Source: Chitinophagales bacterium (GTDB lineage: Bacteria > Bacteroidota > Bacteroidia > Chitinophagales > JABDMM01). Taken from it: a stretch of 64,000 bases of DNA. The DNA is taken from the NCBI GenBank assembly GCA_013001465.1, contig JABDMM010000029.1:11385-75384 (forward strand), in the 5' to 3' direction. Shown here piece by piece: positions 2,845-42,526 of this stretch; position 1 is the stretch's first letter; the number at the start of each line of letters is the position of its first letter. Below the pieces are notes generated by a model. It made no database searches. It saw only the letters and a list, made by a program, of their open reading frames with translations, and had not been told where the DNA came from. Both the position numbers and the translations under genes were made by a program.

Positions 2845-2884
2845 AACTCCCGTTAGGTCTATGCTGCTTAACGGGAGTTTTTTA
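2845..2884 (+). terminator. Rho-independent terminator after the DUF2330 gene
   Basis: An 11-bp stem, aactcccgtta (2845-2855) pairing with taacgggagtt (2869-2879), followed by a T-run to 2883. Confidence 0.65.
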
Positions 2885-2910
2885 TGAACGGAACTGATAG
2901 ATAAAATAGG

Positions 2911-2918
2911 TAGTTTTG
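2911..2918 (+). promoter_or_regulatory. Bacteroidota-type -7 box (TAGTTTTG) upstream of purF
   Basis: Exact match to TAnnTTTG, 17 nt before the ATG at 2935. No convincing -33 TTTG at the expected spacing. Confidence 0.3.
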
Positions 2919-2934
2919 TTACTCAATAGCAGCA

Positions 2935-10084: not shown

Positions 10085-10085
10085 G

Positions 10086-10778: not shown

Positions 10779-11829
10779 ATTTTTCTTGATATCTGCCAAT
10801 GTCAACTTCTCTATCAATAGGTTTACCTTCTGTTAAATGTAACAACAGTTTATTAGCGAAATAGGGTGCCAGGGAATAACCTTTCGTTCCCATGCCATTA
10901 AAGATGTACAGGTTTTTAAATTGTGGATGCTGCCCAAGAAATGGCCTTCTGTCTTTCACGGTTGGTCGTATGCCCACATAATGCCCTTTGACTTCATAAG
11001 GTACCTTGACCAAAGTGTTAAGATCCTGAATTAATCTATTGTACATTTTAGAAGTCGGGTGCAAAGTGCTGTCGTTTAATTCAGAAGTAGCTCCAATATA
11101 ATATAGATCATCGCCAAGAGGGACAACCGAGATCTTTGAACTTAAAATATTCCTGAGACCTAAGTCAGCTGCATGTACATGTAAACATTCCCCTTTCGTG
11201 ATCGCAAATGGAAGAAAATCAAAAAGTGAATTCTTTGATGCTCGGTAACCCTGACAGAAAATTGCTTTACTTGCCTGAATACCCTTCCATTGGACAGCGT
11301 TGTTTTTAAAAGATAGATCGCATTCACTAAACTCTTCAGAAATAAGAAATTCTTTTAACTCAAGATAGGATCTCCAGCTGGATAAAAATTTGTGACTATC
11401 TATTCGAGCGGCATTGTCGATATGAAAGCATCCGAAAGGTAAGTTGAATTTGCTTTCATCCATATAATAGAGTTCATCACTAGCCAGGAATGGCTGATAA
11501 TATCCTGTTTTTGCTTTGGCACTCCACTCGTTAAGGTCCTGATTGGAGTGTAGCGCTTTGAAAATTTTTTCTTTACTATAAAATTTTGCGTCACATACTT
11601 TCTCTATTGCTGAATAGTGTTCATCAGCAAAGCTTACGAGCTCGTCAGCTAACCATGTTTTTACAAATCTTCTTCCTGTGATCGGGTTGATGATTCCCGA
11701 CGCAATAGCAGAAGCATTCCAGTATTCGGATTTGTCGATAATTCTAAACGAAGCACCCGCTAAATGGAGAAAGTAAGTAAGCCAACTTCCGGCAATTCCC
11801 TGACCAATTACCAAAAAATCAACTTTCAT
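10765..11829 (-). CDS. FAD-dependent oxidoreductase (DAO family)
   Basis: 354 aa with an N-terminal Rossmann motif, DFLVIGQGIAGS. Confidence 0.8.
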   Translation of the reverse strand: MKVDFLVIGQGIAGSWLTYFLHLAGASFRIIDKSEYWNASAIASGIINPITGRRFVKTWLADELVSFADEHYSAIEKVCDAKFYSKEKIFKALHSNQDLNEWSAKAKTGYYQPFLASDELYYMDESKFNLPFGCFHIDNAARIDSHKFLSSWRSYLELKEFLISEEFSECDLSFKNNAVQWKGIQASKAIFCQGYRASKNSLFDFLPFAITKGECLHVHAADLGLRNILSSKISVVPLGDDLYYIGATSELNDSTLHPTSKMYNRLIQDLNTLVKVPYEVKGHYVGIRPTVKDRRPFLGQHPQFKNLYIFNGMGTKGYSLAPYFANKLLLHLTEGKPIDREVDIGRYQEKYENA

Positions 11830-12185
11830 AGTGATTCTAATTCGATTTTTAGTTTTTTTGGCAAACTCGCTATAATCAGGGTGTAGGAGTCATCTATCCA
11901 TTTTCGGAGAATAGGATCCTTAATTGTAGAAGGTTCAAACACTACTGTATTCCATAACTTCTTGTTCATATGATATCCAGGGGTAACCTCTTCATATCTT
12001 TCCCTTAGTTCTTCAGCATAATCAGGATCGCATTTCAGATTAACTCGGAAAGGATAATTATCAAGGCCTGTGAGAGCAAACATCTTGCCCATGACTTTAA
12101 ATACTAAAGTGTCCGGACCAAATGGGAATTCTTCGGTTACACCTTTCTTTTCAATACAGTATTCGCGAAAAGATTCAATATCCAT
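11826..12185 (-). CDS. MmcQ/YjbR-family protein
   Basis: 119 aa. The start, FREYCIEKKGVTEEFPFGPDTLVFKVMGKMFA, is typical of YjbR. Confidence 0.75.
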   Translation of the reverse strand: MDIESFREYCIEKKGVTEEFPFGPDTLVFKVMGKMFALTGLDNYPFRVNLKCDPDYAEELRERYEEVTPGYHMNKKLWNTVVFEPSTIKDPILRKWIDDSYTLIIASLPKKLKIELESL

Positions 12186-12691
12186 TACTGTTTAATATAT
12201 GTAACAACACATTGGTGAAACTGACCCGCTTGGGTATACTCCAATTCAATCTCAATTCGCGGTGGAAAAAAATTTTCATCATAATTACCAATGCCGTAAA
12301 CATTTTGCAGAAGACCCTGGCTAAAAGAGATCTCTATCAAGTTTCCCTTATTCTGAGGATTGGTAAAAATTTGTGCTGGCGCAGTAATGCCCTGACCAAG
12401 AAAATTCGAAATCGACAAGCTGTTTAGATTAAAACCATCCCAACTGATATAGGAATTATAAGATCCTGATGATGATGGAGGCGAACAATTTTCGTTTACA
12501 AAGTAATTGCCAACATATTTCTCATAGGATAACTGCTGACAATTATCACCCTCATATCCGTCGATACAAAAACAAGTTCCTTGATTACAATTCTCGTTAA
12601 TGCCGCAAATTACATCCTCGCAACTCCGGTTATCACATGAAAACAAGAATAAACCGAATGCGATCAAGATCAGTGAAAGAAATCTTTTCAT
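12185..12691 (-). CDS. Lipoprotein with an EGF-like cysteine-rich module
   Basis: 168 aa. Lipobox LFLFSC followed by CEDVICGINENCNQGTCFCIDGYEGDNCQQ. Confidence 0.5.
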   Translation of the reverse strand: MKRFLSLILIAFGLFLFSCDNRSCEDVICGINENCNQGTCFCIDGYEGDNCQQLSYEKYVGNYFVNENCSPPSSSGSYNSYISWDGFNLNSLSISNFLGQGITAPAQIFTNPQNKGNLIEISFSQGLLQNVYGIGNYDENFFPPRIEIELEYTQAGQFHQCVVTYIKQ

Positions 12692-12819
12692 TTATGAATA
12701 GTTTTAGAGTATGAATCGTATCAATAATGGTAAATTTCGTAAGAATACTTGCATTATTAAAGAGCTTTTGAGCTTTCATCAAGTTTTTTCTAAATTAAAC
12801 ACCTAAATATTGCACAGAA

Positions 12820-13362
12820 ATGAATGACGAAAAATTATTGGGAACCGGATCGAAAGTAGATCATCCAAAATTTGGTTTAGGAATTGTCGTTGAGTTAAAC
12901 GATCCCTATTACAAAATCTATTTTGCAAGAGAAGGGACAACCAAATCGATAGATATGAGTTTCGATGGGTTAGATATTATCGAAGCAAAGGAGCCTGAAC
13001 AGCGTCCTTTTGAGCTAGAAGATATTGAAAATGCTATCAACAGAGCAGTTGCGAAATATATCGATCCTCCTACGATTGTTCCTTTAGGAAGCAAGTGGGC
13101 TGGCGGCAGTATGGTTTTACATCCGGGAGAAGATGGATTACAATCAAAAGAAATTCCTATCGAAACATTTTTTCATAAAATTGTAATGGTAAGGGATCGT
13201 CTACGTGTTTTAGAGCAAAATATCAATAGTAGTAAAAAACTCGATGACGAAGACAAAGTGAATCTACAACAGTACATAACTCGCATATACGGCTCACTTA
13301 CAACGTTTAATGTACTTTTCAGCAATAAAGAATACTACTTTAAAGGGGAAGGGAGAAAATAA
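12820..13362 (+). CDS. Hypothetical protein
   Basis: A 180-aa ORF in an otherwise empty interval. No motif recognised. Confidence 0.5.
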   Translation: MNDEKLLGTGSKVDHPKFGLGIVVELNDPYYKIYFAREGTTKSIDMSFDGLDIIEAKEPEQRPFELEDIENAINRAVAKYIDPPTIVPLGSKWAGGSMVLHPGEDGLQSKEIPIETFFHKIVMVRDRLRVLEQNINSSKKLDDEDKVNLQQYITRIYGSLTTFNVLFSNKEYYFKGEGRK

Positions 13363-13539
13363 AATCAACATTTTATTGGGGAAATTTCATGGATAACTAC
13401 TAAGTTAGATTTACCAATTATCCTATAAAATTTTAGAGTTTTACCAAATACCCGCATCTAATCCCGTCATTATAGTTAAAAACGTATTGATTTTATCTAT
13501 AATAAGTATTATTTTATTTACACTATACCAATCAGAATT

Positions 13540-16485
13540 ATGCACTTTATCACTCGCACATGTATTGCTGTTGTAGCAATACTTTTCTTTTCTTTTTCAA
13601 GTATCGCCTCAGATTCCTATGTCAGAGGAGAACTTCTAATTCAACTTTCACCGGGAGCACAGATCGACAAGGTTAAGAGATCCTTTCTTAAGTATCAGGT
13701 ACAGCCGGTTCAGCCTATTTCTCCTCATATGCGGATTTGGTTAGTTCGCTTTGATACACTCGCTATAAATGAACATGCGATTATTAGAGAATTGTATGAG
13801 CATCCCTTAATCGATATTGCACAGGTAAATCACAAAATATCACTCCGTTCTACAATACCAAATGATCCTAACTTTGCGAGTCAATGGCAGCACTTAAATT
13901 CAGGAACAAGTGGAGGTATAGCCGATGCTGATATAGACAGCGACGAAGCCTGGGATATTACAACCGGAGGTAACACCTCTGGTGGAGATGAAATCGTAGT
14001 TTGTGTCATTGAGGGAGCAGATCTTACTCATCCGGATCTTGCCGGGAATGCATGGTTCAATACCGCTGAGATTCCGGGAAATAGTATCGATGATGATGGT
14101 AACGGATACGTTGATGACTATCAAGGATGGAATGTATCTTCAAACGATGACAATGTGTATTCTGGAAGTCATGGAACGCAAGTAGCAGGAATGATCGGTG
14201 CAAAAGGTAACAATAACACCGGGGTAAGTGGTGCAAACTGGAATGTAAAGATCATGGTAGTTGCAGGTCATTCAGCTTCAACTGAAGCATCGGTGATAGC
14301 TGCGTACAGCTATCCCTGGTTCATGAGAAAGAAATACAATCAAACAAATGGTAATAGTGGTGCATTTGTTGTTGCAACAAATGCTTCGTGGGGAATTGAT
14401 GGCGGAGATCCGGCGTCTGCTCCATTATGGTGCTCTTTTTATGATTCACTAGGAGAAGTTGGAATACTGAACTGCGGTGCAACTGCAAACAATTCCGTTG
14501 ATGTGGATGTTGTCGGAGACCTTCCAACTGCATGCCCCAGTGATTTTATGGTATCCGTTACTGCGACAAACAATTCGGACATGAGAACCTTTTCTGCTTA
14601 TGGTCAGACAACGATCGATGTAGGAGCTCCGGGAGCAAGTATTTATACTACTTCAGCAGGTGGTGGATATGGAACAACGAGTGGAACTTCATTTGCAAGC
14701 CCACTTACAGCTGGAGTCATAGGGTTGTTATACTCAGTCCCTTGTCCGGCATTAAGTCTACTGATCGATTCTGACCCTAGAGGTGCTGCTCTTGCAGTGC
14801 GAAGTGCATTGTTTGCAGGAGTAGATATCGTTGGAAATTTACCTGGGAACACAGTTACGGGTGGTAGGATCAATGCATTTAACAGTATAAACATACTGAT
14901 GAATAATTTCGGCTGTGGTGGATTGCCAATATGTTCAACACCCTCCGGGTTGAATGCGACATCTATTGGAATGTCAAACGCTACTTTAAATTGGAATAGC
15001 TCTACCATGGCGCTTTATTATCAGGTAGAATTTAGAGAAGCTGGTTCTTCAAGCTGGTTTTCCGACACGACTTCAAGTTTAAGCTACGGCATAAGCGGCT
15101 TGCAGTCATGCACATCTTACGAATTTCGTATAACTGCCTTCTGCGATTCTTTGAGCTCTATAACAAGTCCTTCCACAAGTTTTAATACTGGTGGATGCGC
15201 TAATTGTATTGGTGCCCCATATTGTACTTCAATAAGTAACAACGCGAGTGAAGAATGGATCTCGAATGTAGCCGTTGGCTCATTAAGTAATCCAAGTAGC
15301 AACTTGAATGGCGGATATTCGGATTTCACAAACCTCACGATCAATCTTACAAGAGGGAGTTCTTATCCTATATCAGTAACTCCAGCATTTTCCGCTTCAA
15401 ACTTTACAGAGTATTTCAGAGTCTGGATCGATTTTAATCAAGATGGAGACTTTGATGATGCAAACGAATTGGTTTTCGATCCGGGAGTTGGTGGTTCTGC
15501 CCAAGTCAATGGAGTGATATCCATTCCTTCAAATGCTGCCATAGGTTCATGCAGAATGAGGGTTTCGATGAAATGGAATGCCGTTCCAAGCAGCTGTGAA
15601 AGTTTTTCTTATGGTGAAGTAGAGGATTATTGTGTGATGATTCTGGACTCAGAATCCTGCGATGCCCCCAACTCAAACTATACAACAAATGTACTTTATG
15701 GATCGGCTACATTAAATTGGGACCTTGTATTGGGCGCCGTTGGTTATACTATTCGAGGTAGACAAGTTGGAACTTCTGCATTTGTCACATTGAATATTTC
15801 TTCAGGCACAACCACCACTTATAATGCATCCGGACTGGCATCAAATACCTCATACGAATGGCAAGTCAGAGCTAATTGTGATAACTCGGGAAGTGTTGTT
15901 TCACCCTGGACATCATTCACATCGTTCACCACACTTGAATGTGCAACTCCTGCTAACCTTAGCACCAGTAATATAAACAACAGTTCCGCACGCTTGAACT
16001 GGAATACCGTTGCCGGAGCTATAGGTTATAAAATTCAGGGGCGCGTTGTAGGTACAAGCGGTCTGGTCTCCATTAACGTGGCTGGTAATTCTTCATCTCA
16101 TTATGATGCTTTTGGATTAAGTTCTAATACCTCTTATGAATGGAGAATTCAATCGAATTGCCCGGGAGCAAAATCACCATATTCTGCCTTCAATACATTC
16201 ACGACCGTAGGCTTACAATCAACGAGCAAAGTGTCTGTAACTGGAAACGATGCAAAGATCTACCCTAATCCTGCTTCAGGAATAGTATTAATTGAGCTGA
16301 GTGAACTGTTTGATTTACCAGCGTCAACAATATCAGTATTTGATGGTACTGGAAAAGAAGTTTATTCGGCACGATCAAATTATCCAGTGCATACTTTGGA
16401 TGTAAGTGAATTTAGTGCGGGTGTCTATCAAGTTCTGATCCAGAATAAAGATATTCAATTCAGGAATAGATTAGTAGTTTACTGA
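13540..16485 (+). CDS. Secreted S8 (subtilisin-family) peptidase with FN3-like domains, GEVED domain and T9SS C-terminal sorting domain
   Basis: 981 aa with a signal peptide. S8 His (GSHGTQVAG) and Ser (GTSFASPLTAG) motifs, SYGEVEDYCV, three FN3-like modules, and a C-terminal KIYPNPASG...LVVY T9SS CTD (about 16255-16482). Confidence 0.9.
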   Translation: MHFITRTCIAVVAILFFSFSSIASDSYVRGELLIQLSPGAQIDKVKRSFLKYQVQPVQPISPHMRIWLVRFDTLAINEHAIIRELYEHPLIDIAQVNHKISLRSTIPNDPNFASQWQHLNSGTSGGIADADIDSDEAWDITTGGNTSGGDEIVVCVIEGADLTHPDLAGNAWFNTAEIPGNSIDDDGNGYVDDYQGWNVSSNDDNVYSGSHGTQVAGMIGAKGNNNTGVSGANWNVKIMVVAGHSASTEASVIAAYSYPWFMRKKYNQTNGNSGAFVVATNASWGIDGGDPASAPLWCSFYDSLGEVGILNCGATANNSVDVDVVGDLPTACPSDFMVSVTATNNSDMRTFSAYGQTTIDVGAPGASIYTTSAGGGYGTTSGTSFASPLTAGVIGLLYSVPCPALSLLIDSDPRGAALAVRSALFAGVDIVGNLPGNTVTGGRINAFNSINILMNNFGCGGLPICSTPSGLNATSIGMSNATLNWNSSTMALYYQVEFREAGSSSWFSDTTSSLSYGISGLQSCTSYEFRITAFCDSLSSITSPSTSFNTGGCANCIGAPYCTSISNNASEEWISNVAVGSLSNPSSNLNGGYSDFTNLTINLTRGSSYPISVTPAFSASNFTEYFRVWIDFNQDGDFDDANELVFDPGVGGSAQVNGVISIPSNAAIGSCRMRVSMKWNAVPSSCESFSYGEVEDYCVMILDSESCDAPNSNYTTNVLYGSATLNWDLVLGAVGYTIRGRQVGTSAFVTLNISSGTTTTYNASGLASNTSYEWQVRANCDNSGSVVSPWTSFTSFTTLECATPANLSTSNINNSSARLNWNTVAGAIGYKIQGRVVGTSGLVSINVAGNSSSHYDAFGLSSNTSYEWRIQSNCPGAKSPYSAFNTFTTVGLQSTSKVSVTGNDAKIYPNPASGIVLIELSELFDLPASTISVFDGTGKEVYSARSNYPVHTLDVSEFSAGVYQVLIQNKDIQFRNRLVVY
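15658..16215 (+). repeat. Tandem duplicated FN3-like coding modules inside the S8 peptidase
   Basis: Two adjacent modules of about 95 aa share ..A(T/R)LNW(D/N)xVxGA(V/I)GYxIxGRxVGTS...NTSYEW(Q/R)(V/I)(R/Q)(A/S)NC... (15658-15942 and 15943-16215). A more diverged copy lies at about 14932-15190. Confidence 0.6.
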
Positions 16486-26128: not shown

Positions 26129-26917
26129 ATGGGATTAAGGGTAACAATTATACAAACAGAATTAGCGTGGGAAAACACGGAAGCAAACCTTGATTTCTTC
26201 GAGACTAAGATTCAATCAGTTAAAGACTCCGATCTTATAGTTTTACCCGAAACTTTCACGACTGGATTTTCGATGAACGTTCAAGATCTCGCTGAAGAAA
26301 TGAGTGGAGAGACACTTCTCAGAATGAAGAAATGGTCCGAAGCTTCAGGAGCAGTCATTGTTGGGAGCTATATTGTTAGGGTAGTTCAACGATGTTATAA
26401 CCGGCTGATCTGGATGAATCCCGACGGTTCATATGAAACCTATGATAAAAGACATCTGTTTAGTCTAGGAAATGAACACCAACATTTTAAACAAGGCGAA
26501 AGCCGTTTGATCTGCTCTGTAAAGGGTTGGAAAGTTTGCCCGATGATCTGCTATGATCTTCGGTTTCCTGTTTGGTCAAGAAACAAGCTGGTCTCTGAAA
26601 GAGAAGCAGAGTACGATATACTTGTATATATTGCAAATTGGCCTTATAAAAGAATAAGTGCCTGGGATGCTTTACTAAAAGCTCGTGCAATCGAAAATCA
26701 AGCTTACGTTGTGGGGGTTAACCGAATTGGACTCGACGGTAATAATATAGACCATAAAGGACATTCTACAATTTTTGACCCAAATGGAGAGCAACTGTGT
26801 GATATGGAAGGAAGAGAGAGTGTTGTTACTCTTGAGCTAAATGGCGATCTTCTCGAAAAAACCAGAAGGTCATTACCCTTTCTAAAGGATTCCGATGAAT
26901 TTAAAATCTTACCCTGA
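26129..26917 (+). CDS. Carbon-nitrogen hydrolase (omega-amidase/YafV-like)
   Basis: 262 aa with the nitrilase-superfamily Glu (LPETF), Lys and Cys (PMICYDLRFP) motifs. Confidence 0.85.
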   Translation: MGLRVTIIQTELAWENTEANLDFFETKIQSVKDSDLIVLPETFTTGFSMNVQDLAEEMSGETLLRMKKWSEASGAVIVGSYIVRVVQRCYNRLIWMNPDGSYETYDKRHLFSLGNEHQHFKQGESRLICSVKGWKVCPMICYDLRFPVWSRNKLVSEREAEYDILVYIANWPYKRISAWDALLKARAIENQAYVVGVNRIGLDGNNIDHKGHSTIFDPNGEQLCDMEGRESVVTLELNGDLLEKTRRSLPFLKDSDEFKILP

Positions 26918-28802: not shown

Positions 28803-29472
28803 TTCTTATTTACTACCTCTGATAGATGCATTTAAAGCATCTGCAGACTCAGTTCACGCTGATCGTATGAGTGCTTACATGAAAAACAACTTCCCTTTTT
28901 TCGGGATTTCATCACCACATAGAAAAGAATTGATGCGGGAATTCTTGAAAGAGTATTCTTATCCCCAGCCTACACTGTTTCCAGATGTCATTGTTTCTTG
29001 TTTTCAGCAGCATGAAAGAGAACTCCAGTACTTCGCAGTAGATATCCTAACTAAAAAGATAGATAAGCAGAATAAAGAAACAATTGAGTTAGCAGAATGG
29101 ATGATTGTAACAAAGTCATGGTGGGATTCAGTAGACGCAATTGCATCAAATATAATTGGACCTTTGCTGCTGAAATTTCCAGAACTGAGAAATCGTAGTG
29201 ATGGGTATTTGAAAAGCGATAACATGTGGCTTCGGCGAACAGCATTATTGCATCAGTTAAAGTATAAAGATCAAACTGACGAGGAGAAATTGTTTGCATA
29301 CTGTCAAGAATTGTCTGATGAGAAAGGATTTTTTATAAGGAAAGCAATTGGGTGGGCACTCAGAGAATACAGCAAGACGGATCCTAAGTCTGTCATCAAC
29401 TTTGTAAACAAAATACAGATTTCAGCATTAAGTAGGAAAGAAGCATTAAAATGGCTCAACAACAAATCATAA
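28771..29472 (+). CDS. DNA alkylation repair protein (AlkD-like HEAT repeat)
   Basis: ..RMSAYMKNNFPFFGISSPHRKEL...FIRKAIGWALREYSK. The start is uncertain: the track gives 28732, and ATG at 28771 gives less overlap with phoD. Confidence 0.75.
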   Translation: MMTNLGQPEINSYLLPLIDAFKASADSVHADRMSAYMKNNFPFFGISSPHRKELMREFLKEYSYPQPTLFPDVIVSCFQQHERELQYFAVDILTKKIDKQNKETIELAEWMIVTKSWWDSVDAIASNIIGPLLLKFPELRNRSDGYLKSDNMWLRRTALLHQLKYKDQTDEEKLFAYCQELSDEKGFFIRKAIGWALREYSKTDPKSVINFVNKIQISALSRKEALKWLNNKS

Positions 29473-31058: not shown

Positions 31059-31089
31059 AAGGCTCTCCTTGCACAGGAGGGCCTTTTTT
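31059..31089 (+). terminator. Rho-independent terminator after rpoD
   Basis: A 10-bp stem, aaggctctcc with ggagggcctt (one G-U pair), a 7-nt loop, then TTTTTT. Confidence 0.7.
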
Positions 31090-31107: not shown

Positions 31108-32640
31108 CTAAGCGATAATACTCACTAAAAGATTGTGAAGCTCCTTACGGTCAGCTTTGCCATTTGCATTGCGTGGGAAACGCTCAACATTGTGAACATC
31201 GTGAGGAATCATATAACTAGGCAGTTTGGATTCAAGGTGAGAAATCAACTTCTCCACTCCAATATTTAGATTTTCGACAAGAAGATGAGGTGTCAGGAGG
31301 CCTTTATGGTTTTTAACAGCGATAAAAGCGACTTTCGCATGAGCACCTAAAAAATTGCGGACAACATGTTCTACCTCGCCAGGTTCTACTCTGTAGCCAT
31401 CAAGCTTTAACTGAAAATCTTTTCTGCCTAAGAAAATATAATTCCCTTCTTCATTAAGATATCCAATGTCCCCGGTATCGTATGCTTTCGAACCATTTGA
31501 CAGAACCAGATATGCCTCTTTAGTCTTCTCTTCATCCTTCCAATATCCATCTGTAACTTGCTTACTACAAAGAGCGATGATTCCTTTTTCACCAGGAGAA
31601 AGAATATTGTGATCCTGGTCTAAAATATAGAATTCCATACCTGGCACAGGTTTACCTATAGGAACAACTCCATTAACCGCTTGTGAAAATGATTCATCGT
31701 TTGACCAGACATACATTGAAGAAGCGCCCGGGCACTCAGAGGGTCCATATATATTTTGAATGATAGCATCCTCTGATAAGCAAGATGACCACTCCACCAT
31801 CAATTCATGTAAAAGAGGTTCACCACAAAACATACTATATCTCAAGGCTGGAAGTTGTAGTTCCTTAATGTAGGGTTTGATATATAACAATGTTGATGGG
31901 ACCAGCATTGAAACAGTGATGTCATGGTCAAGTAGTATGCTTATTATATTATAATACTTAATACCTTCTTCAGGAACAACAAAGCAACTCGCTCCCATAG
32001 AAAGGGGGATGAAGGTCATCATTCCTGCCAGATCAAAGGTCCAATCAAACATTTGGAGAAATCTGTCATCGCTGGAAAGATCATATTGCGATTTGTCAAA
32101 GTATAGTGTAATGAAGTGAGCAAGATTAACGTGCTTCACTAAAACTCCCTTGGGGCGGCCGGTGCTACCTGAGGTGAATAGCATGTATGCAAAGCTGTCA
32201 GCATCAATTTCATTAACAAAAACATCACAATCATCACCTGTTTCAACAGATGTAAGATCGATGCTGCAAAGACCAGCAGCTTTTATATCATATGAATGTT
32301 TTGAAATTTGTAACGGTAGATCACAGTATAACATTACCGAGATCTCAGACTCCTCTATTATTTCCTTAAACCTGTCGTATGGGTTATGCCTGTTTATCGG
32401 TATATACGGAATTCCTGACATTACCAGTGCGATGATTGCCGCATAAGTATGAACATCCTGACCGGTAATTACACCAACAAAGTTCTGATGATTGAAATTT
32501 CTTTCTGCAAACTCTTTTTGGTAGTTCGCCACCAGATTACCTAGGTCATTATAGGTATACCTCTCATTATTGCAGAATAATGCAAGATTACCTCCATGGT
32601 TTTGGAAGCTCTCAATAAAATATTCTGGCAATAGTTTCAT
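31108..32640 (-). CDS. Stand-alone NRPS/DltA-type adenylation enzyme (amino-acid activating)
   Basis: 510 aa with A-domain core motifs: YMLFTSGSTGRPKGV (A3), TFDLAG (A4, Asp retained), NIYGPSE (A5), YDTGDIG (A7), GRKDFQLKLDGYRVEPGEVE (A8), NGKADRKEL (A10). No fused T or C domain. Confidence 0.8.
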   Translation of the reverse strand: MKLLPEYFIESFQNHGGNLALFCNNERYTYNDLGNLVANYQKEFAERNFNHQNFVGVITGQDVHTYAAIIALVMSGIPYIPINRHNPYDRFKEIIEESEISVMLYCDLPLQISKHSYDIKAAGLCSIDLTSVETGDDCDVFVNEIDADSFAYMLFTSGSTGRPKGVLVKHVNLAHFITLYFDKSQYDLSSDDRFLQMFDWTFDLAGMMTFIPLSMGASCFVVPEEGIKYYNIISILLDHDITVSMLVPSTLLYIKPYIKELQLPALRYSMFCGEPLLHELMVEWSSCLSEDAIIQNIYGPSECPGASSMYVWSNDESFSQAVNGVVPIGKPVPGMEFYILDQDHNILSPGEKGIIALCSKQVTDGYWKDEEKTKEAYLVLSNGSKAYDTGDIGYLNEEGNYIFLGRKDFQLKLDGYRVEPGEVEHVVRNFLGAHAKVAFIAVKNHKGLLTPHLLVENLNIGVEKLISHLESKLPSYMIPHDVHNVERFPRNANGKADRKELHNLLVSIIA

Positions 32641-32675
32641 TCAGGCATTATTCTTTTCTTTCTAATACGGAGGAA

Positions 32676-33020
32676 TTACGCTCTGTTGTTTTCATCCGGA
32701 AAAACGATCTTGGGTTGGATATTTTTAGCTTTGTCTTTTTCTACAAGGCCGTAACTTAACACAATAACGATATCGCCAACTTCGGCCTTTCTTGCAAGAG
32801 GTCCGTTGAGACATATAACTCCACTTCCGCGCTCCCCTTTTAATACATATGTTTCAGACCGTTCTCCATTATTGACATTACAGATCAGTACTTGCTCACC
32901 TTCTATCAAGTCGGCTTTATCCATTAGATCTTCATCTATGGTAATACTGCCAATATAGTTAAGCTCAGTTTCAGTTATTCTGGCTCTGTGAATTTTAGAT
33001 TTCAGTACTGATATAAGCAT
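32676..33020 (-). CDS. panD: Aspartate 1-decarboxylase proenzyme
   Basis: 114 aa. The start is LKSKIHRARITETELNYIGSITID, with the Gly-Ser self-cleavage site. It aligns along its length with E. coli PanD from memory. Confidence 0.9.
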   Translation of the reverse strand: MLISVLKSKIHRARITETELNYIGSITIDEDLMDKADLIEGEQVLICNVNNGERSETYVLKGERGSGVICLNGPLARKAEVGDIVIVLSYGLVEKDKAKNIQPKIVFPDENNRA

Positions 33021-33038: not shown

Positions 33039-34298
33039 TCATGATCTTCCCTCATTCTCATCTTTAGCTCCTACCAAAACAGCCATGCTGCCGGGTAGAT
33101 GTTTATTATCATACATCTTTTGAACACTATCGCCTATTTTATCATATGGAAAAACTTCAGAAACGATGGGTTCAATTTCTTTATTTCTAACTAAGTCATT
33201 AAACAAAGTATGCTCTTCGACACTAGCACCGTGAGACCCTTGTACCCTTTTTTTAAAGATCCATAAAAAACGTAGGTCGAAAGAAGCCATATACCCGGTA
33301 GTTCCTGCACATGTTATTACCATTCCTCCGGGATCACAAACAAATAATGAAGTTGGGAAAGTCATTTCTCCAGGGTGTTCAAGCACTATAAATGGAGCTT
33401 TGCCTCCAGTGATAGTTAGCAGTTCTTTGTTAAAGGCTTTTACACCCTTTCTCCATTCGAGGTATGCCGGGTCGTCCTGAACAGCAGTTTTCAACGCGCC
33501 CCAGTGTGAATAATTACTCCTGTTTATGGTAAGCGCACCTAGCTTTTTACAAAATTCTGCTCTTTCATCACTACTAACTACTGCAACCGGAATACCTCCA
33601 GCTCTCTTGACTAGTTGTATACCCATTACACCAAGCCCCCCGGAACCTCCCCAGATCAAAACCACATCTCCCTTTTTAACGGTATGTGGATGGTGGTGTA
33701 GCAACATTCGATAAGCGGTTGCACCGGAAAGCATATAGACAGAGGACTCCGCCCAGCTTAGATGTTTTGGTTTCGGAACACATTGAAAATGTTTTGCTTT
33801 ACAAAATTGAGCAAACGATCCCCAATTTGTCTCAAAACCCCATGCCCGTAATGTCGTTGAAAGCATATCATCGCCGCCTGCTGCCAGATATGGTTCATTG
33901 GGATCGATATGTGCGGGTAATACAACGATCTCGTCTCCAACAGAGACGTTCTTTACATCTTTTCCAATTTTCCAGACTATACCGGATGCATCAGATCCCG
34001 CTATATGAAAATCGCCATTAGCCTCACCTCTGATTTCTCTTAATTTAATGACATCTACGGGATAGCCTGTTGAGGCCCAAACGCAATTATAGTTGACTCC
34101 CGCAGCTTTTACAGCTATCAGAACTTCATCATCCGCTATTTCTGGTACTTTTATTTTTTCTGGCTTGTAAGCATCTTTAGGCTCCCCGAACCGGTCCTGT
34201 CTTATTACTTGTGCATGCATGTACTCAGGCACTACGCCTAGTTCTGGTAGGCTGCCCACGTCAACAATTTCTACTTTATCAATTTTAGAACTTTCCAT
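33039..34298 (-). CDS. Crotonyl-CoA carboxylase/reductase (CCR) family enoyl-CoA reductase
   Basis: 419 aa, aligned by eye to Streptomyces CCR. Shared stretches include AAGVNYNCVW, AWGFETNWGSFAQF...PKPKHLSWAE, VLIWGGSGGLG and GSHGAS. The Asn, Phe-Glu and His positions of the CO2 pocket appear conserved. Confidence 0.75.
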   Translation of the reverse strand: MESSKIDKVEIVDVGSLPELGVVPEYMHAQVIRQDRFGEPKDAYKPEKIKVPEIADDEVLIAVKAAGVNYNCVWASTGYPVDVIKLREIRGEANGDFHIAGSDASGIVWKIGKDVKNVSVGDEIVVLPAHIDPNEPYLAAGGDDMLSTTLRAWGFETNWGSFAQFCKAKHFQCVPKPKHLSWAESSVYMLSGATAYRMLLHHHPHTVKKGDVVLIWGGSGGLGVMGIQLVKRAGGIPVAVVSSDERAEFCKKLGALTINRSNYSHWGALKTAVQDDPAYLEWRKGVKAFNKELLTITGGKAPFIVLEHPGEMTFPTSLFVCDPGGMVITCAGTTGYMASFDLRFLWIFKKRVQGSHGASVEEHTLFNDLVRNKEIEPIVSEVFPYDKIGDSVQKMYDNKHLPGSMAVLVGAKDENEGRS

Positions 34299-34311: not shown

Positions 34312-35868
34312 TTATTGAACCGCTTTGTCTTTTCCTTCCCAAAAAGGAGCTCTTAGCTTTCTTCGCAACAATTTCCCTCTTGGGCTACGCGGTAATTCGT
34401 TTTTCCACTCTACCCTTATAGGTCTTTTGTATTCCGGTAAATGGTCGATACACCAGTTCAGTAAGTCTTTGTCATCCATTTCGCCATTAAATGGAACAGC
34501 AATAACGCAAAGCCCTTCACCATATAAATCATGAGGAATTCCGACAACTGCGACATCTTTTATCCTGGGATGCTTCAGCAATTCTTTTTCAACCTCGGCC
34601 GGGAAAATATTGATCCCTCTTGAGACGATCATATCATTTATCCTATCCACAAGAAATAGATAGCCCTCACTGTCTAAAAACCCTACATCACCCGAATGAA
34701 ACCATCCTTGGTCGTCAAACATTTTTTCATTTCGTTCTTCAAGGTTCCAGTATCCATCAATTACATTTGGCCCTCTCAAACATACCTCCCCGGATTCATT
34801 TGTTCCGGCTATGGATCCGTCAGCTTTCATAATAACAAGCTCAACGTCATGAAGTGGTCGACCAACAGACTTTATAATGTCTTGATACTTTGAATCTTTA
34901 TCATTCATATAGTTTACATGATCATCGAACCTTAAAAGAGTAGATATCCCTGTGGTTTCAGTTAGGCCATATCCCTGCGTCATATAGCATTCAAACAGTT
35001 CAATGGCTTTGGCAATTACATTTAACGTGGAAGGCGAACCTCCATATTGAATATGCTGAAGAGAAGAGAAATCATATACTTCTGAGCCTTTCATCTCGAC
35101 AATAGATTGCATCATAACCGGAGCGAGGTGTCCGTTTGTTACTTTATATTCCTGTACGGCCTCACAAAAGCCTTTTGGACTAAACATTTCCAGCAATACA
35201 TTGGTACAGCCCACATACAGTCCAAGTATAAAAAACCCAATCCCGGGCATGCTATGTAGTTTGGCTTCAACAAGATTGACAGAACTTGATCCCAGGCATG
35301 GCGTCTCGTTCACTACTTTATTCAATTCAAAGAATAGGTTTGCATTTGAAATAGGGACGCCTTTTGGATAGCCTGTAGTGCCTGATGTATAAAGATGAAA
35401 TAGACAGTCTTTTGTGTTTACTTCAACATTCAAATTTTCTGTTTTGTCCTTGTATTCCTTCTGAATCTTCGGATAAAGTGTTTCAAGAACATGTGAAGGG
35501 ACATTAAATTCTCGATTAGCGTCTTTAACCACCTTTTCGAAATACTCGCTATAAAATACGTGTTTAACTGTTGAGTCCTTTATTACATGGGCCAACTCAT
35601 CAGAATTGTATTCGTAGTTAAGTGGGACTGGAATAATACCTGCATTTATTGCAGCATGAAAAAACTGAATTATCAGGTCGTTGTTGAGATCAAGTATTCC
35701 AATTCGATCCCCTTTTTTGAGACCCAGATCAGTGAAATAATGAGCAACTCTATTTATGTCGTTGTTGAATTCTTTATAGCTAAAGACTTTGTCCTCGAAC
35801 ATATATGCTGTTCTAAGGGGATGAGCCCCGGCTCTGTATTCTATTAACGATTTAAATGTTTCGGCCAT
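34312..35868 (-). CDS. ANL-family acyl-CoA synthetase / AMP-dependent ligase
   Basis: 518 aa. Motifs LYTSGTTGYPKGV, GYGLTETT, FHSGDVGFLDSEGYLFLVDRINDMI and PRSPRGKLLRR. Confidence 0.85.
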   Translation of the reverse strand: MAETFKSLIEYRAGAHPLRTAYMFEDKVFSYKEFNNDINRVAHYFTDLGLKKGDRIGILDLNNDLIIQFFHAAINAGIIPVPLNYEYNSDELAHVIKDSTVKHVFYSEYFEKVVKDANREFNVPSHVLETLYPKIQKEYKDKTENLNVEVNTKDCLFHLYTSGTTGYPKGVPISNANLFFELNKVVNETPCLGSSSVNLVEAKLHSMPGIGFFILGLYVGCTNVLLEMFSPKGFCEAVQEYKVTNGHLAPVMMQSIVEMKGSEVYDFSSLQHIQYGGSPSTLNVIAKAIELFECYMTQGYGLTETTGISTLLRFDDHVNYMNDKDSKYQDIIKSVGRPLHDVELVIMKADGSIAGTNESGEVCLRGPNVIDGYWNLEERNEKMFDDQGWFHSGDVGFLDSEGYLFLVDRINDMIVSRGINIFPAEVEKELLKHPRIKDVAVVGIPHDLYGEGLCVIAVPFNGEMDDKDLLNWCIDHLPEYKRPIRVEWKNELPRSPRGKLLRRKLRAPFWEGKDKAVQ

Positions 35869-35882: not shown

Positions 35883-36881
35883 TTATTCAGGGACAACGTA
35901 AAGTGCTGAACCACCAGAAAACCCTGCCCCTGCTGTAAGCATTAATATGGTTTGTCCTGGTTTAAGATCTCTTTTTTCGTATACGGAATTCAGAGTAAAT
36001 GGTATAGTTCCGGCCATGCTATTACCCATAATGTCTATAGTTACTTCCATTTTCTCCAAAGGAATCTCCAAAGCTTCTGCGACTTTTTTCATTACATACA
36101 TGTTTGCCTGATGCATAACAAAATAATCTACATCACCTGGTTTAATTCCATATGAACTACATACCTTTTCTCCAAGGTTTTTCATAACTGCTACAGCTCT
36201 TTGAAGAAACTCTTTACTATCAATCGTCATAATAGTACCATGCAATCCATCATCGAGTGTTTTATGTGTGGGGGGTATAAGGCTTCCACCAGCAGGGACA
36301 TTCAATTTGTCGATCCCGTAGCCATCTTGCCACAATGCAATTTCCATGAACCCTTCCTCTGTGGAGCATTTGCTTAAAACAACTGCGCCGGCACCATCAC
36401 CAAAAACGGGGATAAATCTTTCATCCTTTTTAGTAAGGAAACGAGATTTTATATCGGCACCTGCAACGAGAACATATTCTGCACCGGTTGCTAATAATCG
36501 TACAGCTCTGTCTAACGCATAAACAAAAGATGCACAAGCATTAACTGTATCTTCTGCAGGGCATGTCGCACCAAGAATGTGCTGAATCCTACCTGCGGCA
36601 GCAAGGCTAGTATAATCTGCCGTACCGGTTCCAAGAATAATTCTGTCGAGTTGCTCTGGTTTGATATTGGCGCGCTCCATAGCTATTTTACAGGCTTCCG
36701 CCGCCATGTGGCTCGTTCCTGTACCTTCATCAGCCCAATGTCTTGTGGTTATACCTACTACTTTTTCGATATACTCAGGATCCAGATCCAGATCCCATGC
36801 ATCGATCACTTCCTGATTGGTTACAGGTTTGCCCGGCAAATGACCACCGGTTCCGATAATTTTAACTCCCCAACCTTTCAT
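35883..36881 (-). CDS. FabH-like beta-ketoacyl synthase III
   Basis: 332 aa. Cys-His-Asn triad motifs NACASFVYAL, MHQANMYV and MGNSMAGT, with a C-terminal GAGFSGGSA. Confidence 0.85.
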   Translation of the reverse strand: MKGWGVKIIGTGGHLPGKPVTNQEVIDAWDLDLDPEYIEKVVGITTRHWADEGTGTSHMAAEACKIAMERANIKPEQLDRIILGTGTADYTSLAAAGRIQHILGATCPAEDTVNACASFVYALDRAVRLLATGAEYVLVAGADIKSRFLTKKDERFIPVFGDGAGAVVLSKCSTEEGFMEIALWQDGYGIDKLNVPAGGSLIPPTHKTLDDGLHGTIMTIDSKEFLQRAVAVMKNLGEKVCSSYGIKPGDVDYFVMHQANMYVMKKVAEALEIPLEKMEVTIDIMGNSMAGTIPFTLNSVYEKRDLKPGQTILMLTAGAGFSGGSALYVVPE

Positions 36882-36905: not shown

Positions 36906-37952
36906 TTAGACTCTGATCAACAATCCGCCCCAGGAAATTCCTCCCCCAACGACAGACATCATTAATAAGTCGTCCTTTTTAATAGTTTCTGATTTAATTG
37001 CTTTGTGAAGCGCCAGCAGTGAACTTACTGCACCACAATTAGCATATTCAGAAACTACATTTACCACTTTTTCGGTCGGTATATTTGCTTTTTCAGTAGC
37101 AAGTAAAACCGTTTTTTTCGTTGATTGGTGTGGTATAAAACAATCGACGTCTTCCGGCTTAATATTGGCATGCCGATATAATTTGTCCGGGAGCCATTCC
37201 CAGATCTGATTCATATAAGCTGTAGCCTTTGGTGCCATCAACATCAGGTATTCGTTATTCTTGATCGCTTTTTCAGTTGGAGGAAGAGCACCTTGTACAC
37301 CATACATCGAAGCATAATGGCCATCAGAGTCTAGATAAGAAAGCAACAACTTGCTTCCATTTTTTTCAACTCTGGATAAAACAACTGCTGCAGCCGCATC
37401 TCCTCCCGCGAATACTTGATTTGTGTTAAAATCTGCAATTTTAGAAAATGTTTCTGCAGACACAATAAGCACATTCTTCAGACCGCTCTGAAGACTTAAA
37501 AAACCCAACGTCATTGCATAAAGATTGGAAGCACATCCGGTTTTCATTTCGAAAGATGCGCATTTCATTCCTAACTGTCCACCAACATATGTCGCAGTTG
37601 AGGAGGTATATCTTGGCGATGTCGTTGTAACTGAAATCAAAAGATCTATATCTTCTGGTAATAATTCTGCATCGTGCAAAGCATTCTTAATCGCATGATA
37701 CATCATATCCACAGAAGTGGCTTCATTCTCAGTAAGCACGTGACCAGGGGTGTGAACCCAAAACCGCTTACTGAAACCCCATTTATCCTCTATATAATTT
37801 TTATCTATTCCAATGTCAAGCAATTTGGTCTTCCAATCTGCTCCGTATTTCAGATTATATATATCCTCGTTGCTGACCCATTTACCCAACTCTTCCGGGA
37901 ATGCTGTGGCAATTCCCTTGATTTCTACATTGCTCAAATTCTCTATATACAT
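36906..37952 (-). CDS. Divergent KASIII/thiolase-fold condensing enzyme
   Basis: 348 aa. Motifs TGCASNLYAM (Cys), IPHQSTKK (His) and YANCGAVSS (Asn). It is more divergent than the neighbouring FabH-like gene. Confidence 0.7.
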   Translation of the reverse strand: MYIENLSNVEIKGIATAFPEELGKWVSNEDIYNLKYGADWKTKLLDIGIDKNYIEDKWGFSKRFWVHTPGHVLTENEATSVDMMYHAIKNALHDAELLPEDIDLLISVTTTSPRYTSSTATYVGGQLGMKCASFEMKTGCASNLYAMTLGFLSLQSGLKNVLIVSAETFSKIADFNTNQVFAGGDAAAAVVLSRVEKNGSKLLLSYLDSDGHYASMYGVQGALPPTEKAIKNNEYLMLMAPKATAYMNQIWEWLPDKLYRHANIKPEDVDCFIPHQSTKKTVLLATEKANIPTEKVVNVVSEYANCGAVSSLLALHKAIKSETIKKDDLLMMSVVGGGISWGGLLIRV

Positions 37953-38961: not shown

Positions 38962-39360
38962 CTATTCTGAAACATAATTCTCCATGATTGAATGAATGCG
39001 TCTGGTGTCACTATATACCTGCCAATATTCGATTTGGTTTCCTTTAATTTGTATCCGCCAGGCACAGGGTTGCCTCCATTTGTGATCTTTGTTCTCGCTT
39101 CCCATGTAGCTTCCGGAAGCAAAACCGAATAATCCAACCAAATCGCCCTCCAGAAAATAATTTTCTACTTCTATAAAGTAATCAGGAAACCACTGGAAAT
39201 AGGACTTCCAGTTTTGAAGCATCATCGACCTACCTTTAAACATCTTACCGCCAGCATCGACATAACGATGATTTTCAGTCATCAATGATTCCAGGGATTC
39301 AATATCTTTCTGGTTAATTGATTGAATAAATTGAAGGACGACATCTATAGGATCGGCCAT
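38962..39360 (-). CDS. NTF2-like (SnoaL-like) domain protein
   Basis: 132 aa. The pattern VLQFIQSINQKDIESLESLMTENHRYVD is typical of SnoaL/NTF2-like proteins. Confidence 0.55.
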   Translation of the reverse strand: MADPIDVVLQFIQSINQKDIESLESLMTENHRYVDAGGKMFKGRSMMLQNWKSYFQWFPDYFIEVENYFLEGDLVGLFGFASGSYMGSENKDHKWRQPCAWRIQIKGNQIEYWQVYSDTRRIHSIMENYVSE

Positions 39361-39974: not shown

Positions 39975-41354
39975 TTAAGCAGGGCCTTCATACTCAGAAA
40001 CTACGAATCTTAGCTTTCCACTTGATGTGCGTTCAATTTTATCTACATATCTGATATCGAAGTAATCCGCATCTAATCTTGAACGGATCTCCTGGATAAG
40101 ACTTTCTTCGTCATTCTGTTGATAGCTTGAAGACTTTACCACATCAAAGTGAATGAATCCATCCTTCTCCTGGACAATTCTCGCTTCGACTACATTGATC
40201 ATGTCCTTGAAAATATGGTCCATTCTCCCGATTTTAGTTCCATTGCGCAATGTCACGAAATCTTCGCTTCTTCCATCAACCCTGTCTACAATTCGACTCT
40301 CTCTACCACACTGACATTTGTGATTTGCTGTAATTGTTGCTACATCATTTGTATCGTATCGCAGAAAAAACATTGCGGGGTTAGAAAATGAGCTGCCTAC
40401 AATCCTATATTGATCTTTCTGGCCTTGGATAGGAATGAATTCCACAAATGAGTAGTCCTCATCAACATGCATATTGCCATATTCACATTCTGAAATGTTT
40501 GCCACAGGTTCTGACAATCCATAATGTTGTATCGGGCTAACGCCGAAAGCTTCTTTTATCAATCTCTTGTGACTTTCAAGAAGATTTTCGGCGCCGATAG
40601 ACACCTTCTTGACCTTGTGTTCAAACCGCAATCCATTCTCCAACATAAGAGAAGCTAAATTGGAAAGGAATGAGGGATAACCGTGAAACCAGCTAATTTT
40701 TTCATGATTAATTTTATCAATGTATGCAGGGAGGGTTTTCTTGTTGAGGTGATACATGCTGAACATATGTCTTTTGGTTGCCTTAACGGTTCTCCAATAT
40801 GGCGGTTTCGATTGATTTATCGGTACAATTGTACGGCCTCCAAAAAAAGCGACCCATGTTGCGAACCCGATCCCCCTATTCATTCTAAATCTCCACCAGA
40901 CTGCCCATTTCTCTTGTTCACAGCTTACTGACTCAGGATAGATCAGTCCGGCACCGGTGGTACCCGAGGTATGGGTGATTAAGTGCGGGTGGCTTTTATA
41001 GTTATCGTTTACAACTTGATCAATATTCTCTCTTATTGAAGTTTTCGTAGTGATGGGCAGCTTCTCAATACCTTTGAGATCAGAAAGCTCTGAAGGTTCA
41101 AAACCAACTTCTTTAAATAGTCTTCTATAATATATTGAATGTTGTTGAGCGCGTATTAAGTTGTCTTTCAAGCGTTCAATTTGTAATTGCTTTAATTTAT
41201 CGATGGGCCATCTATCCCTATATCTTATTGAATCTAGTATTCGAAAGAATTCTTTATTATAACGGCGCTTAACCATTCTCTTTCCGTATAATTCGATTAG
41301 AATTTTCTGTATAAAAAGAGGTGATTGGTGGTATATTCGTTCGGTCATATTCAT
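39975..41354 (-). CDS. Phenylacetate-CoA ligase-like (CapK/F390-synthetase family) adenylate-forming enzyme
   Basis: 459 aa. TSGTTGAG P-loop-like motif with a PaaK/CapK-like size and layout. Confidence 0.7.
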   Translation of the reverse strand: MNMTERIYHQSPLFIQKILIELYGKRMVKRRYNKEFFRILDSIRYRDRWPIDKLKQLQIERLKDNLIRAQQHSIYYRRLFKEVGFEPSELSDLKGIEKLPITTKTSIRENIDQVVNDNYKSHPHLITHTSGTTGAGLIYPESVSCEQEKWAVWWRFRMNRGIGFATWVAFFGGRTIVPINQSKPPYWRTVKATKRHMFSMYHLNKKTLPAYIDKINHEKISWFHGYPSFLSNLASLMLENGLRFEHKVKKVSIGAENLLESHKRLIKEAFGVSPIQHYGLSEPVANISECEYGNMHVDEDYSFVEFIPIQGQKDQYRIVGSSFSNPAMFFLRYDTNDVATITANHKCQCGRESRIVDRVDGRSEDFVTLRNGTKIGRMDHIFKDMINVVEARIVQEKDGFIHFDVVKSSSYQQNDEESLIQEIRSRLDADYFDIRYVDKIERTSSGKLRFVVSEYEGPA

Positions 41355-41404: not shown

Positions 41405-42526
41405 ATGAAGAAAAAAATCCTAATGATCGGCCCTTGCAGGGGTCATAATATACAAAGGTATCTGGATGTCTTTCAAAAAGATAAGGACCTTTATGACTTT
41501 GCCTTTGCAAACTACCATCCAAAGCGTGAGTTTTCAAGTCGCAGCTATCCCGGCCTTGAAATTTTTGATGTTTGGAATGTTTTTAAGCTGCTCTTGAGGT
41601 TATTAAGAAATAATGATATCCTCTGGATTCATATGCATGTTCCAATACCATTGATACTTTTCGCCTTGATTTTTCGAAATAGGAAATCTGTTGTAAACTA
41701 TAATATCTGGGGCGAGTCCATTCCACGAGTTGCATCTGGTAAAGGATTAAAGGCTGGAATATACCGATTCATAATGCGTGAAGCGGATCACGTCATGTGC
41801 CCATGGTATGCTACTTATGAAATAATAAAAGAGAACATAGGTGGAGTTAATGCCTTTGTTCACCCTATGGGAATGAATGGTGAATTTTTTGATCTTGAAA
41901 CCAAACAAGAACTTCAGTCAGAAACTCAGCAGTTTTTAAATACACTTCCAAATGATGTCACTAAATTATATTTTCCAAAGAGCTTTTCGAACGCTAGTGA
42001 TCACGACTTAATTATAGAGGCTGGTAAAATCTTGTTAGATAAAGGTGTCCGCAACTTCATTATATATTTCTGGATGGGTAACCAGTTGAACCAGGAACTT
42101 GAAGCACTGTACAGACAAAAAATAAGTGAACTGGGGTTAAATGATCACATTTCTATTATACATCATAGTTTTTTGCCGACATATGATATCCAGCAAGTCT
42201 GGCTGAAAATGGATGTTGGGTTGCAGATTGCAATATTCGATCTCTTATCGACCACTATTCTTGAACCAATGTTCCTCGAAAAGGAATTTATCGCCACAGA
42301 TATCGCTCCATATCGAATCATAGAAGAAAAATATAATGTAGACCTTGATCTGATCCCGATGGACAAAAATGCGCTAGCGTCTAGAATGGAAAGGCTGATA
42401 AAGGGCTACAAAACCAACGAACTGATAATGAAAAAAAGAAAGGAGGTAACAGAGACCCATTTCAATACTTACAATAACATTCCTTCGATCGTCAGTTATC
42501 TTATCACCGAGGGAAGAAAAAAGTAA
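41405..42526 (+). CDS. Glycosyltransferase (GT-B, GT4-like)
   Basis: 373 aa. The N-terminus (KILMIGP) and two-domain layout suggest a GT-B fold. Motif support is weak. Confidence 0.5.
   Translation: MKKKILMIGPCRGHNIQRYLDVFQKDKDLYDFAFANYHPKREFSSRSYPGLEIFDVWNVFKLLLRLLRNNDILWIHMHVPIPLILFALIFRNRKSVVNYNIWGESIPRVASGKGLKAGIYRFIMREADHVMCPWYATYEIIKENIGGVNAFVHPMGMNGEFFDLETKQELQSETQQFLNTLPNDVTKLYFPKSFSNASDHDLIIEAGKILLDKGVRNFIIYFWMGNQLNQELEALYRQKISELGLNDHISIIHHSFLPTYDIQQVWLKMDVGLQIAIFDLLSTTILEPMFLEKEFIATDIAPYRIIEEKYNVDLDLIPMDKNALASRMERLIKGYKTNELIMKKRKEVTETHFNTYNNIPSIVSYLITEGRKK

Follow-up and report, generated by a model that had tools for sequence, protein, structure and literature searches.

What does an aspartate decarboxylase gene do when it stands directly upstream of the gene for an amino acid-activating enzyme, and does its product indicate which amino acid that enzyme uses? 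The question is raised by a 64,000-nucleotide stretch of DNA from a Chitinophagales bacterium (assembly GCA_013001465.1, contig JABDMM010000029.1, positions 11,385 to 75,384; hereafter the window), in which panD, the gene for pyruvoyl-dependent aspartate 1-decarboxylase, lies immediately upstream of the gene for a free-standing, DltA-like adenylation enzyme (the A enzyme). An initial annotation made from the sequence alone had proposed that beta-alanine produced in situ may be the substrate of this enzyme. That proposal gains from our findings that panD stays joined to the A gene as a unit and that the lack of a carrier protein is unusual for the enzyme family, and it loses from the specificity code of the enzyme. 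Our preferred explanation, which we hold tentatively, is that the two genes make and activate beta-alanine. The pair comprises the following features.

31108..32640, minus strand: free-standing DltA-like amino-acid adenylation enzyme, 510 aa, NNC94332.1, code DLMMMCIGAK (Pfam, NCBIfam, PDB)
32641..32675, minus strand: spacer from the panD stop to the A-gene start, 35 nt (read from sequence)
32676..33020, minus strand: panD, pyruvoyl-dependent aspartate 1-decarboxylase, 114 aa, NNC94333.1 (TIGR00223, Pfam PF02261)

A recurring panD-A gene pair

The open reading frame (ORF) at 32676-33020 encodes an intact PanD protein. The protein scores 146.4 bits on TIGR00223, over the equivalog cutoff of 106, and matches Pfam Asp_decarbox (PF02261) over its full length (E = 2e-48). 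Its self-processing site (LNYIG24-S25) is intact, as had been noted initially for the Gly-Ser motif NYIGS, and the catalytic set is complete, with K9, H11, Y22, R54, T57, Y58, and N72 all kept (numbering of E. coli PanD, in agreement with the published numbering). The distance to the 510-aa enzyme is exactly the 35 nt given in the initial annotation, and this spacer is too short for an independent promoter-terminator pair. A gene for a 262-aa member of the carbon-nitrogen hydrolase family is present at 26129-26917, at a distance of 5 kb from the operon; beta-ureidopropionases, which offer another route to beta-alanine, are among the members of this family.

The A enzyme matches Pfam AMP-binding (PF00501) with E = 1.5e-52. 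Its top NCBIfam models are those for amino acid adenylation domains and for DltA, and all of them score below their curated cutoffs. On TIGR01733 (amino-acid adenylation domain) it reaches 268.6 bits, under the cutoff of 317.4, and it falls far under the cutoffs of the DltA models TIGR01734 (238.4 versus 559.85) and NF003417 (244.2 versus 476). The nearest solved structures in the PDB are the nonribosomal peptide synthetase (NRPS) adenylation (A) domains LgrA and PheA, and DltA (E = 1e-44). The initial annotation had credited the protein with all A-domain core motifs and the Asp of motif A4. Motifs A1 to A10 can indeed be read, and an alignment to GrsA places Asp235 and Lys517 (GrsA numbering) in the enzyme. 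However, motifs A2, A4, and A6 are degenerate, whereas A3, A5, A7, A8, and A10 are intact.

In a search of 5.8 billion proteins, the nearest relative of the A enzyme was P0002, encoded on the metagenomic contig L001 and 52% identical, with all others at 46% identity or less. On L001, panD again lies directly upstream of the A gene in the same orientation, with a gap of 105 nt, and its product is 70-71% identical to the PanD of the window. The two A enzymes share 53% identity over their full length, including long invariant blocks, when the two pieces into which the L001 protein is divided are joined. The L001 PanD is nearer to the window PanD (70%) than to the PanD proteins encoded beside panC (61-64%).

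The surroundings of the pair are not the same at the two sites. Upstream of panD in L001 is a gene for a DUF5916 protein, not the crotonyl-CoA carboxylase/reductase (CCR) gene found in the window, and an HTTM gene is inserted downstream of the A gene. Because both flanks differ, the panD-A junction has survived rearrangement on both sides. Moreover, because the pair recurs in L001 without the KASIII and CCR genes that precede it in the window, we regard panD-A as a two-gene unit in its own right. The L001 pair is also near a convergent rpoD gene, whose product is 92% identical to the RpoD encoded in the window. When an alignment of the two sequences was used to scan metagenomes, no third panD-linked member came up.

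Elsewhere in Bacteroidota, panD was found to follow panC in three contexts (contigs L014, L016, and L017), one of them from Saprospiraceae. The recurring gene order is panC, panD, LPG_synthase_TM (MprF flippase-like), and a cytidylyltransferase-like gene (L014 5008-7851; L016 150-2886; L017 4857-8160), and in L014 and L017 the panC-panD block is divergent from GT5-BamH-GlmS. The placement of panD in the window is therefore unusual, as first supposed; nevertheless, a PanD homolog within a biosynthetic cluster has precedent in the kirromycin and aurodox systems.

The window enzyme lacks the carrier that accompanies its relatives

No carrier, condensation domain, or DltB/C/D partner had been seen near the pair at the outset, and this absence extends to the full 64 kb, which are part of a 92.8-kb contig of a metagenome-assembled genome, by phmmer, hidden Markov model (HMM), tblastn, and Pfam searches. 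Seeds for AcpP, DltC, peptidyl carrier proteins (PCP), and aryl carrier proteins (ArCP) gave nothing significant in the window with phmmer. A carrier HMM was built from four carriers that accompany homologs of the A enzyme; this model recovered a fifth carrier, not used to build it, at E = 2.7e-15, and its top match in the window had E = 6.4, i.e., no carrier. By tblastn, MBOAT, SDR, and PanC were not found in the window. Pfam scans covered the listed window ORFs of at least 80 aa, except an 82-aa ORF at 29051-29299, and revealed no PP-binding, phosphopantetheinyl transferase (PPTase), condensation, or pantothenate genes; the remaining ORFs in these scans are housekeeping genes. The 64 kb thus include no DltC carrier, DltB MBOAT, DltD, or panB/panC.

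A small carrier protein bearing a W-D-S-x-x-H ('WDS') motif is encoded within 2.3 kb of the A gene in all four of the other family members (L002, L004, L018, and L021), including L021, which has the closest relative lacking a panD link. The metagenomic contig L018 holds a full Dlt-like operon at 9971-14141, consisting of the A enzyme, an 80-aa carrier (MWDSITH), an MBOAT, and a 311-aa protein. The A enzyme of this operon, which the metagenome scan recovered at 36% identity, belongs to the Bacteroidota DltA-like family, many of whose members bear the JGI annotation DltA. Because carriers stand beside four of four relatives, the family is predicted to be a carrier-dependent, DltA-like family of Bacteroidota, with the window protein as a diverged outlier.

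A contig scan with the window A protein alone returned only distant matches (Xanthobacter, Granulicella, and similar) of 24-28% identity, and an exhaustive search of representatives was dominated by multi-module NRPSs with summed scores and yielded no further members of the subfamily. To our knowledge, D-alanylation-type envelope chemistry has been little studied in Gram-negative Bacteroidota. Two of the carrier-bearing contigs have further features. L004 also encodes an FkbH-like protein of 564 aa. In L002, at 1118-3945, a gene for an Orn/DAP/Arg-type PLP decarboxylase overlaps the start of a gene for a 529-aa AMP-binding enzyme; this other combination of a decarboxylase with an adenylating enzyme lies ~5 kb from the DltA-like gene.

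The substrate pocket resembles that of DltA except in one loop

The 10-residue specificity code of the A enzyme was read against alignments with GrsA and DltA. The GrsA reference sequence was validated via its published code and that of Bacillus subtilis DltA against PDB 3E7W. The codes are as follows.

Window A enzyme: DLMMMCIGAK
L001 A enzyme: DLMVMCVGAK
Bulk of the A-enzyme family: DLMLLCVIFK
B. subtilis DltA (D-Ala): DLMTMCTVAK

The window code is identical to that of B. subtilis DltA at 7 of 10 positions, including Asp, Leu, and Cys at 235, 236, and 301, and it matches the generic Gly code at 2 of 10. According to a review, these three positions in DltA and AlmE serve to recognize the substrate through its amino and D-methyl groups (PMC11253843). 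The code of AurB/KirB, DTLQLGVIWK (PMC9361827), which was the sole beta-alanine code retrieved for comparison, agrees with the window code at 2 of 10 positions. Comparison of the codes, which the initial annotation had put forward as a check of its proposal, thus does not predict beta-alanine, although this amino acid is a plausible substrate of the A enzyme. Beta-alanine has the same size as D-alanine, of which it is an isomer. Putative beta-alanine codes of the type VDWVISLADK were absent from literature searches, and a shift of the Asp to position 236 in beta-alanine domains was therefore discarded as a criterion; the comparison uses the AurB code and the structural rules of the review.

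In structurally characterized A domains for beta-amino acids, Asp235 is retained to bind the beta-amino group, and space is created by the beta13-beta14 loop that holds residues 330/331; in the beta-amino-acid-selective enzymes of the VinN type, this loop is one residue shorter and a bulky residue occupies position 236 (PMC11253843). In both panD-linked enzymes the loop reads SECPGASS, whereas in the rest of the family and in DltA it reads TEAT(I/V)(F/A), and this loop, with Pro329-Gly330-Ala331, is the sole place where the panD-linked pair departs from both DltA and its own family. Among the best 120 relatives in the 5.8-billion-protein database, Gly-Ala at 330/331 together with SECPGASS occurs in the window and L001 enzymes only. 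The length of the loop in the window enzyme is that of the family and of DltA, and Leu236 is likewise as in DltA. Because the shortening known from VinN is missing, the remodeling of the loop is suggestive only as a sign of a beta-alanine pocket.

The pair follows a condensing enzyme and reductase module

In the window, panD and the A gene are the last of six head-to-tail genes on the minus strand, in the order KASa-KASb-ligase-CCR-panD-A, with successive gaps of 24, 14, 13, 18, and 35 nt. The upstream genes and the element that follows the A gene are listed here.

36906..37952, minus strand: KASIII-like condensing enzyme a (KASa), 348 aa; ACP_syn_III Pfam domains, Cys-His-Asn intact
35883..36881, minus strand: KASIII-like condensing enzyme b (KASb), 332 aa; PRK09352 246.3 bits (cutoff 249), Cys-His-Asn intact
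34312..35868, minus strand: acyl-CoA ligase-type AMP-binding enzyme, 518 aa; best model long-chain-fatty-acid--CoA ligase PRK06187, 407.7 bits (cutoff 476, not reached)
33039..34298, minus strand: crotonyl-CoA carboxylase/reductase (CCR), 419 aa; TIGR01751 495.1 bits, cutoff 378.55
31060..31089, no strand assigned: 10-bp hairpin (one G-T pair) with a 5-nt loop and a T-run; read from sequence, unlisted by a consensus scan

The hairpin and its T-run sit between the A gene and a convergent rpoD-like gene and probably end the transcripts of both. Gaps of 13-35 nt between the genes, together with this single terminal hairpin, argue for one transcript. A sigma-70 promoter scan gave 17 matches versus 30 in shuffled sequence and was left unused, its consensus not being that of Bacteroidota.

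The upstream genes belong to a module that exists without the pair. On three unrelated contigs that have no panD, A enzyme, or carrier in the cluster, Bacteroidota conserve the order KASIII-KASIII-SDR-AMP ligase-CCR-MBOAT (L011 5367-12790; L012 5287-12695; L013 2603-9914). The window proteins are orthologous to those of the three contigs, with identities of 55-58% for CCR, 40-43% for the ligase, 52-55% for KASb, and 40-41% for KASa. The window keeps these four genes in the same order, the SDR and MBOAT genes are missing, and panD-A is found at the place of the MBOAT gene. Between the MBOAT of the module and the DltB-like one encoded on L018, identity is 28-33%. A full-text literature search found no paper that joins MBOAT with CCR or FabH in such a module.

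The closest homolog of the CCR (60% identical) is encoded on L019, likewise without a downstream MBOAT gene. At L019 1-5988, CCR and ligase genes lie directly upstream of GT5-BamH-GlmS, the genes that flank panC-panD in L014 and L017, a hint that the panD locus was adjacent to the CCR module before the arrangement seen in the window arose. The top PDB matches of the window CCR are 9KVA, AntE, and 4GI2 (E ~1e-125 to 1e-118).

Both KASIII paralogs keep the Cys112-His244-Asn274 triad, as do their orthologs in L011-L013, and to judge by these residues they look like true condensing enzymes. Their scores on PRK09352 (246.3 bits for KASb and 163.8 for KASa) are under the cutoff of 249, and we therefore call them KASIII-like rather than FabH proper. 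The suggestion in the initial annotation that one of these proteins acts as an acyltransferase for the aminoacyl-AMP finds no support here, given the full condensing triads and the existence of the module without panD or the A gene.

Relation to known systems

In its architecture, the A enzyme resembles the free-standing enzymes of the Dlt (DltA-DltC-DltB-DltD) and Vibrio AlmE-AlmF-AlmG systems. The DltA-like code of its pocket and the operons of A enzyme, carrier, and MBOAT in which its Bacteroidota homologs occur extend this likeness. Unlike those systems, the window has no counterparts of DltC, DltB, or DltD in 64 kb, loop 329-331 is Pro-Gly-Ala, and panD precedes the A gene.

In kirromycin and aurodox biosynthesis, the PanD homolog KirD/AurD supplies beta-alanine to the A domain of KirB/AurB, and a CCR is part of the same cluster (PMC9361827). 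A PanD homolog, an adenylation domain, and a CCR are thus clustered there as in the window. The A domain in these systems, however, belongs to a multidomain NRPS that includes a carrier domain of its own, within a large actinomycete polyketide synthase (PKS)/NRPS system, whereas the window has six free-standing Bacteroidota genes.

The VinN/VinL/VinO and bolagladin (BolO/BolC/BolN) systems likewise combine a free-standing adenylating enzyme with a decarboxylase to give an activated beta-alanyl-type unit. In these systems aspartate is adenylated first, loaded onto a free-standing acyl carrier protein (ACP), and decarboxylated there by a PLP enzyme (PMC7756342, PMC11253843). In contrast, the pyruvoyl enzyme PanD acts on free aspartate, and the window has neither an ACP nor a VinN-type shortened loop. 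For bolagladin, the KASIII homologs BolM/BolP have been proposed to N-acylate the beta-alanyl thioester (PMC7756342). Each piece of the chemistry considered below therefore has precedent; what is new is the DltA-like, carrier-less form in Bacteroidota and the exchange of parts within the module.

Proposed function of the pair and its alternatives

The explanation that we favor, while giving it somewhat less than an even chance, is that panD-A makes and activates beta-alanine for an acceptor or carrier encoded elsewhere, and that the pair has here replaced the MBOAT gene of the KASIII/CCR module. PanD would decarboxylate aspartate to beta-alanine, which the A enzyme, with its near-D-Ala DltA pocket and remodeled Pro329-Gly330-Ala331 loop, would adenylate. 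The beta-alanyl group would then pass to a thiol or other nucleophile not encoded nearby, candidates being CoA/pantetheine, a carrier protein encoded at another site in the genome, or an acceptor that takes the group directly. The two genes would be co-transcribed behind the KASIII-KASIII-ligase-CCR module, and because they occupy the place of the MBOAT acyltransferase gene, the beta-alanyl unit is probably transferred onto, or linked with, the acyl product of the module. The sequences themselves establish which genes are present, that their catalytic residues are intact, how tightly the operon is packed, that the pair recurs, that the 64 kb hold no partners, and which residues line the pocket; substrate, acceptor, and connection with the KASIII module are inferred. 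Support comes from the window and L001 enzymes having no carrier nearby, whereas four of four relatives have one.

Several observations weigh against this explanation. The code is closer to that of DltA than to the AurB/KirB code, and the loop length and residue 236 are not those of VinN. The window PanD is of a mainstream housekeeping type, ~70% identical to ordinary Bacteroidota PanDs, and may be the sole copy in the genome. The pair is represented by two examples that share rpoD synteny, such that common ancestry could explain the adjacency. No KASIII or CCR genes accompany the L001 pair, and coupling to the module is therefore not required. Finally, the L001 A gene is frameshifted (5403-5454) into ORFs of 360 and 137 aa, in a contig with 2x coverage according to its name, where sequencing error and decay are indistinguishable.

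Next in our ranking is a reading in which the A enzyme is a plain DltA-type ligase for D-Ala (or Gly) whose carrier and acyltransferase are encoded elsewhere, with panD as a chance housekeeping neighbor. The seven code positions shared with DltA, the Asp-Leu-Cys trio among them, fit such an enzyme well, as do the carrier-dependent, Dlt-like settings of other family members, of which the full operon of A enzyme, carrier, MBOAT, and 311-aa protein in L018 is the clearest case. The unremarkable PanD sequence and the rpoD synteny common to L001, with its possibly inherited adjacency, are also in keeping with it. A D-Ala ligase would leave unexplained, however, why panD is parted from panC in exactly the genomes that have this A subfamily, why the junction has outlasted rearrangement on both flanks, and why this subfamily alone is without an adjacent carrier and alone altered at 329-331. 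We consider it unlikely, if still a serious contender; were it correct, the finding would shrink to a lineage-specific gene order. Far less credible is that the A gene is a decaying, functionless remnant of a Dlt-like system and that panD merely uses the operon promoter. The missing carrier and MBOAT genes in the window, the frameshift in L001, and the degenerate motifs A2, A4, and A6 could all be taken as traces of decay. Yet the reading frame of the window A gene is open over its full length, and Asp235, Lys517, and motifs A3/A5/A7/A8/A10 are intact, the 53% identity to the joined L001 protein and the invariant blocks indicate purifying selection, and the L001 frameshift lies in a contig of low coverage. 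We regard this last account, which ranks below all others, as very improbable.

Between these two stands a special case of the beta-alanine explanation, in which the six free-standing parts build one small molecule. The ligase and CCR would provide alkylmalonyl-CoA, the A enzyme an activated beta-alanyl unit, and the KASIII enzymes would N-acylate this unit or condense it with the alkylmalonyl unit to give an N-acyl-beta-alanine or a dihydropyridone/piperidinedione ring. Such a pathway would suit the single, tightly packed operon, the intact catalytic residues of both KASIII enzymes, and a CCR nearest to 9KVA, the promiscuous AntE, and 4GI2. Precedents exist in the KASIII chemistry of bolagladin (PMC7756342) and in the PanD, CCR, and beta-alanine A domain of kirromycin/aurodox (PMC9361827), and the loss of SDR and MBOAT suggests an altered end product. 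On the other hand, the window provides no carrier protein for either half, L001 has the pair but not the module and L011-L013 and L019 have the module but not the pair, the combination is known from a single genome, and beta-alanine is itself a putative substrate. We therefore rate an integrated pathway of this kind as quite unlikely. More doubtful again is a carrier-free variant, in which the aminoacyl-AMP or a CoA thioester goes straight to a KASIII enzyme and is joined to the CCR-derived alkylmalonyl unit to form an N-acyl-beta-alanine/dihydropyridone-type metabolite; such a route, free of any thiolation domain, would be a minimal counterpart to the chemistry of the kirromycin pyridone or the bolagladin starter. 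A route from beta-alanyl-CoA through acryloyl-CoA to methylmalonyl-CoA via the CCR was rejected, as the operon has no ammonia-lyase gene.

If beta-alanine is indeed what the A enzyme activates, a DltA pocket would have been retuned from D-Ala to beta-Ala by one loop, which would constitute a natural, minimal alpha-to-beta switch. The pair would then represent a mobile two-gene set of Bacteroidota, combining supply with activation, that needs no dedicated neighboring carrier. Independent of the substrate, the analysis exposes Dlt-like operons in Bacteroidota and a conserved KASIII-KASIII-SDR-ligase-CCR-MBOAT module of which our literature search gave no description.

Other features of the window

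Rfam and tRNA scans of the window gave no matches. Upstream of the operon, the MscS, SnoaL-like, and PaaK-like neighbors were ruled out as members of the system, as they are not conserved beside the module in L011-L013. The SnoaL-like gene (38962-39360) lies just upstream of the MscS gene. At 39975-41354 and 41405-42526, a gene for a PaaK/CapK/F390-synthetase-like adenylate-forming enzyme stands beside one for a weak GT1/GT4 glycosyltransferase match.

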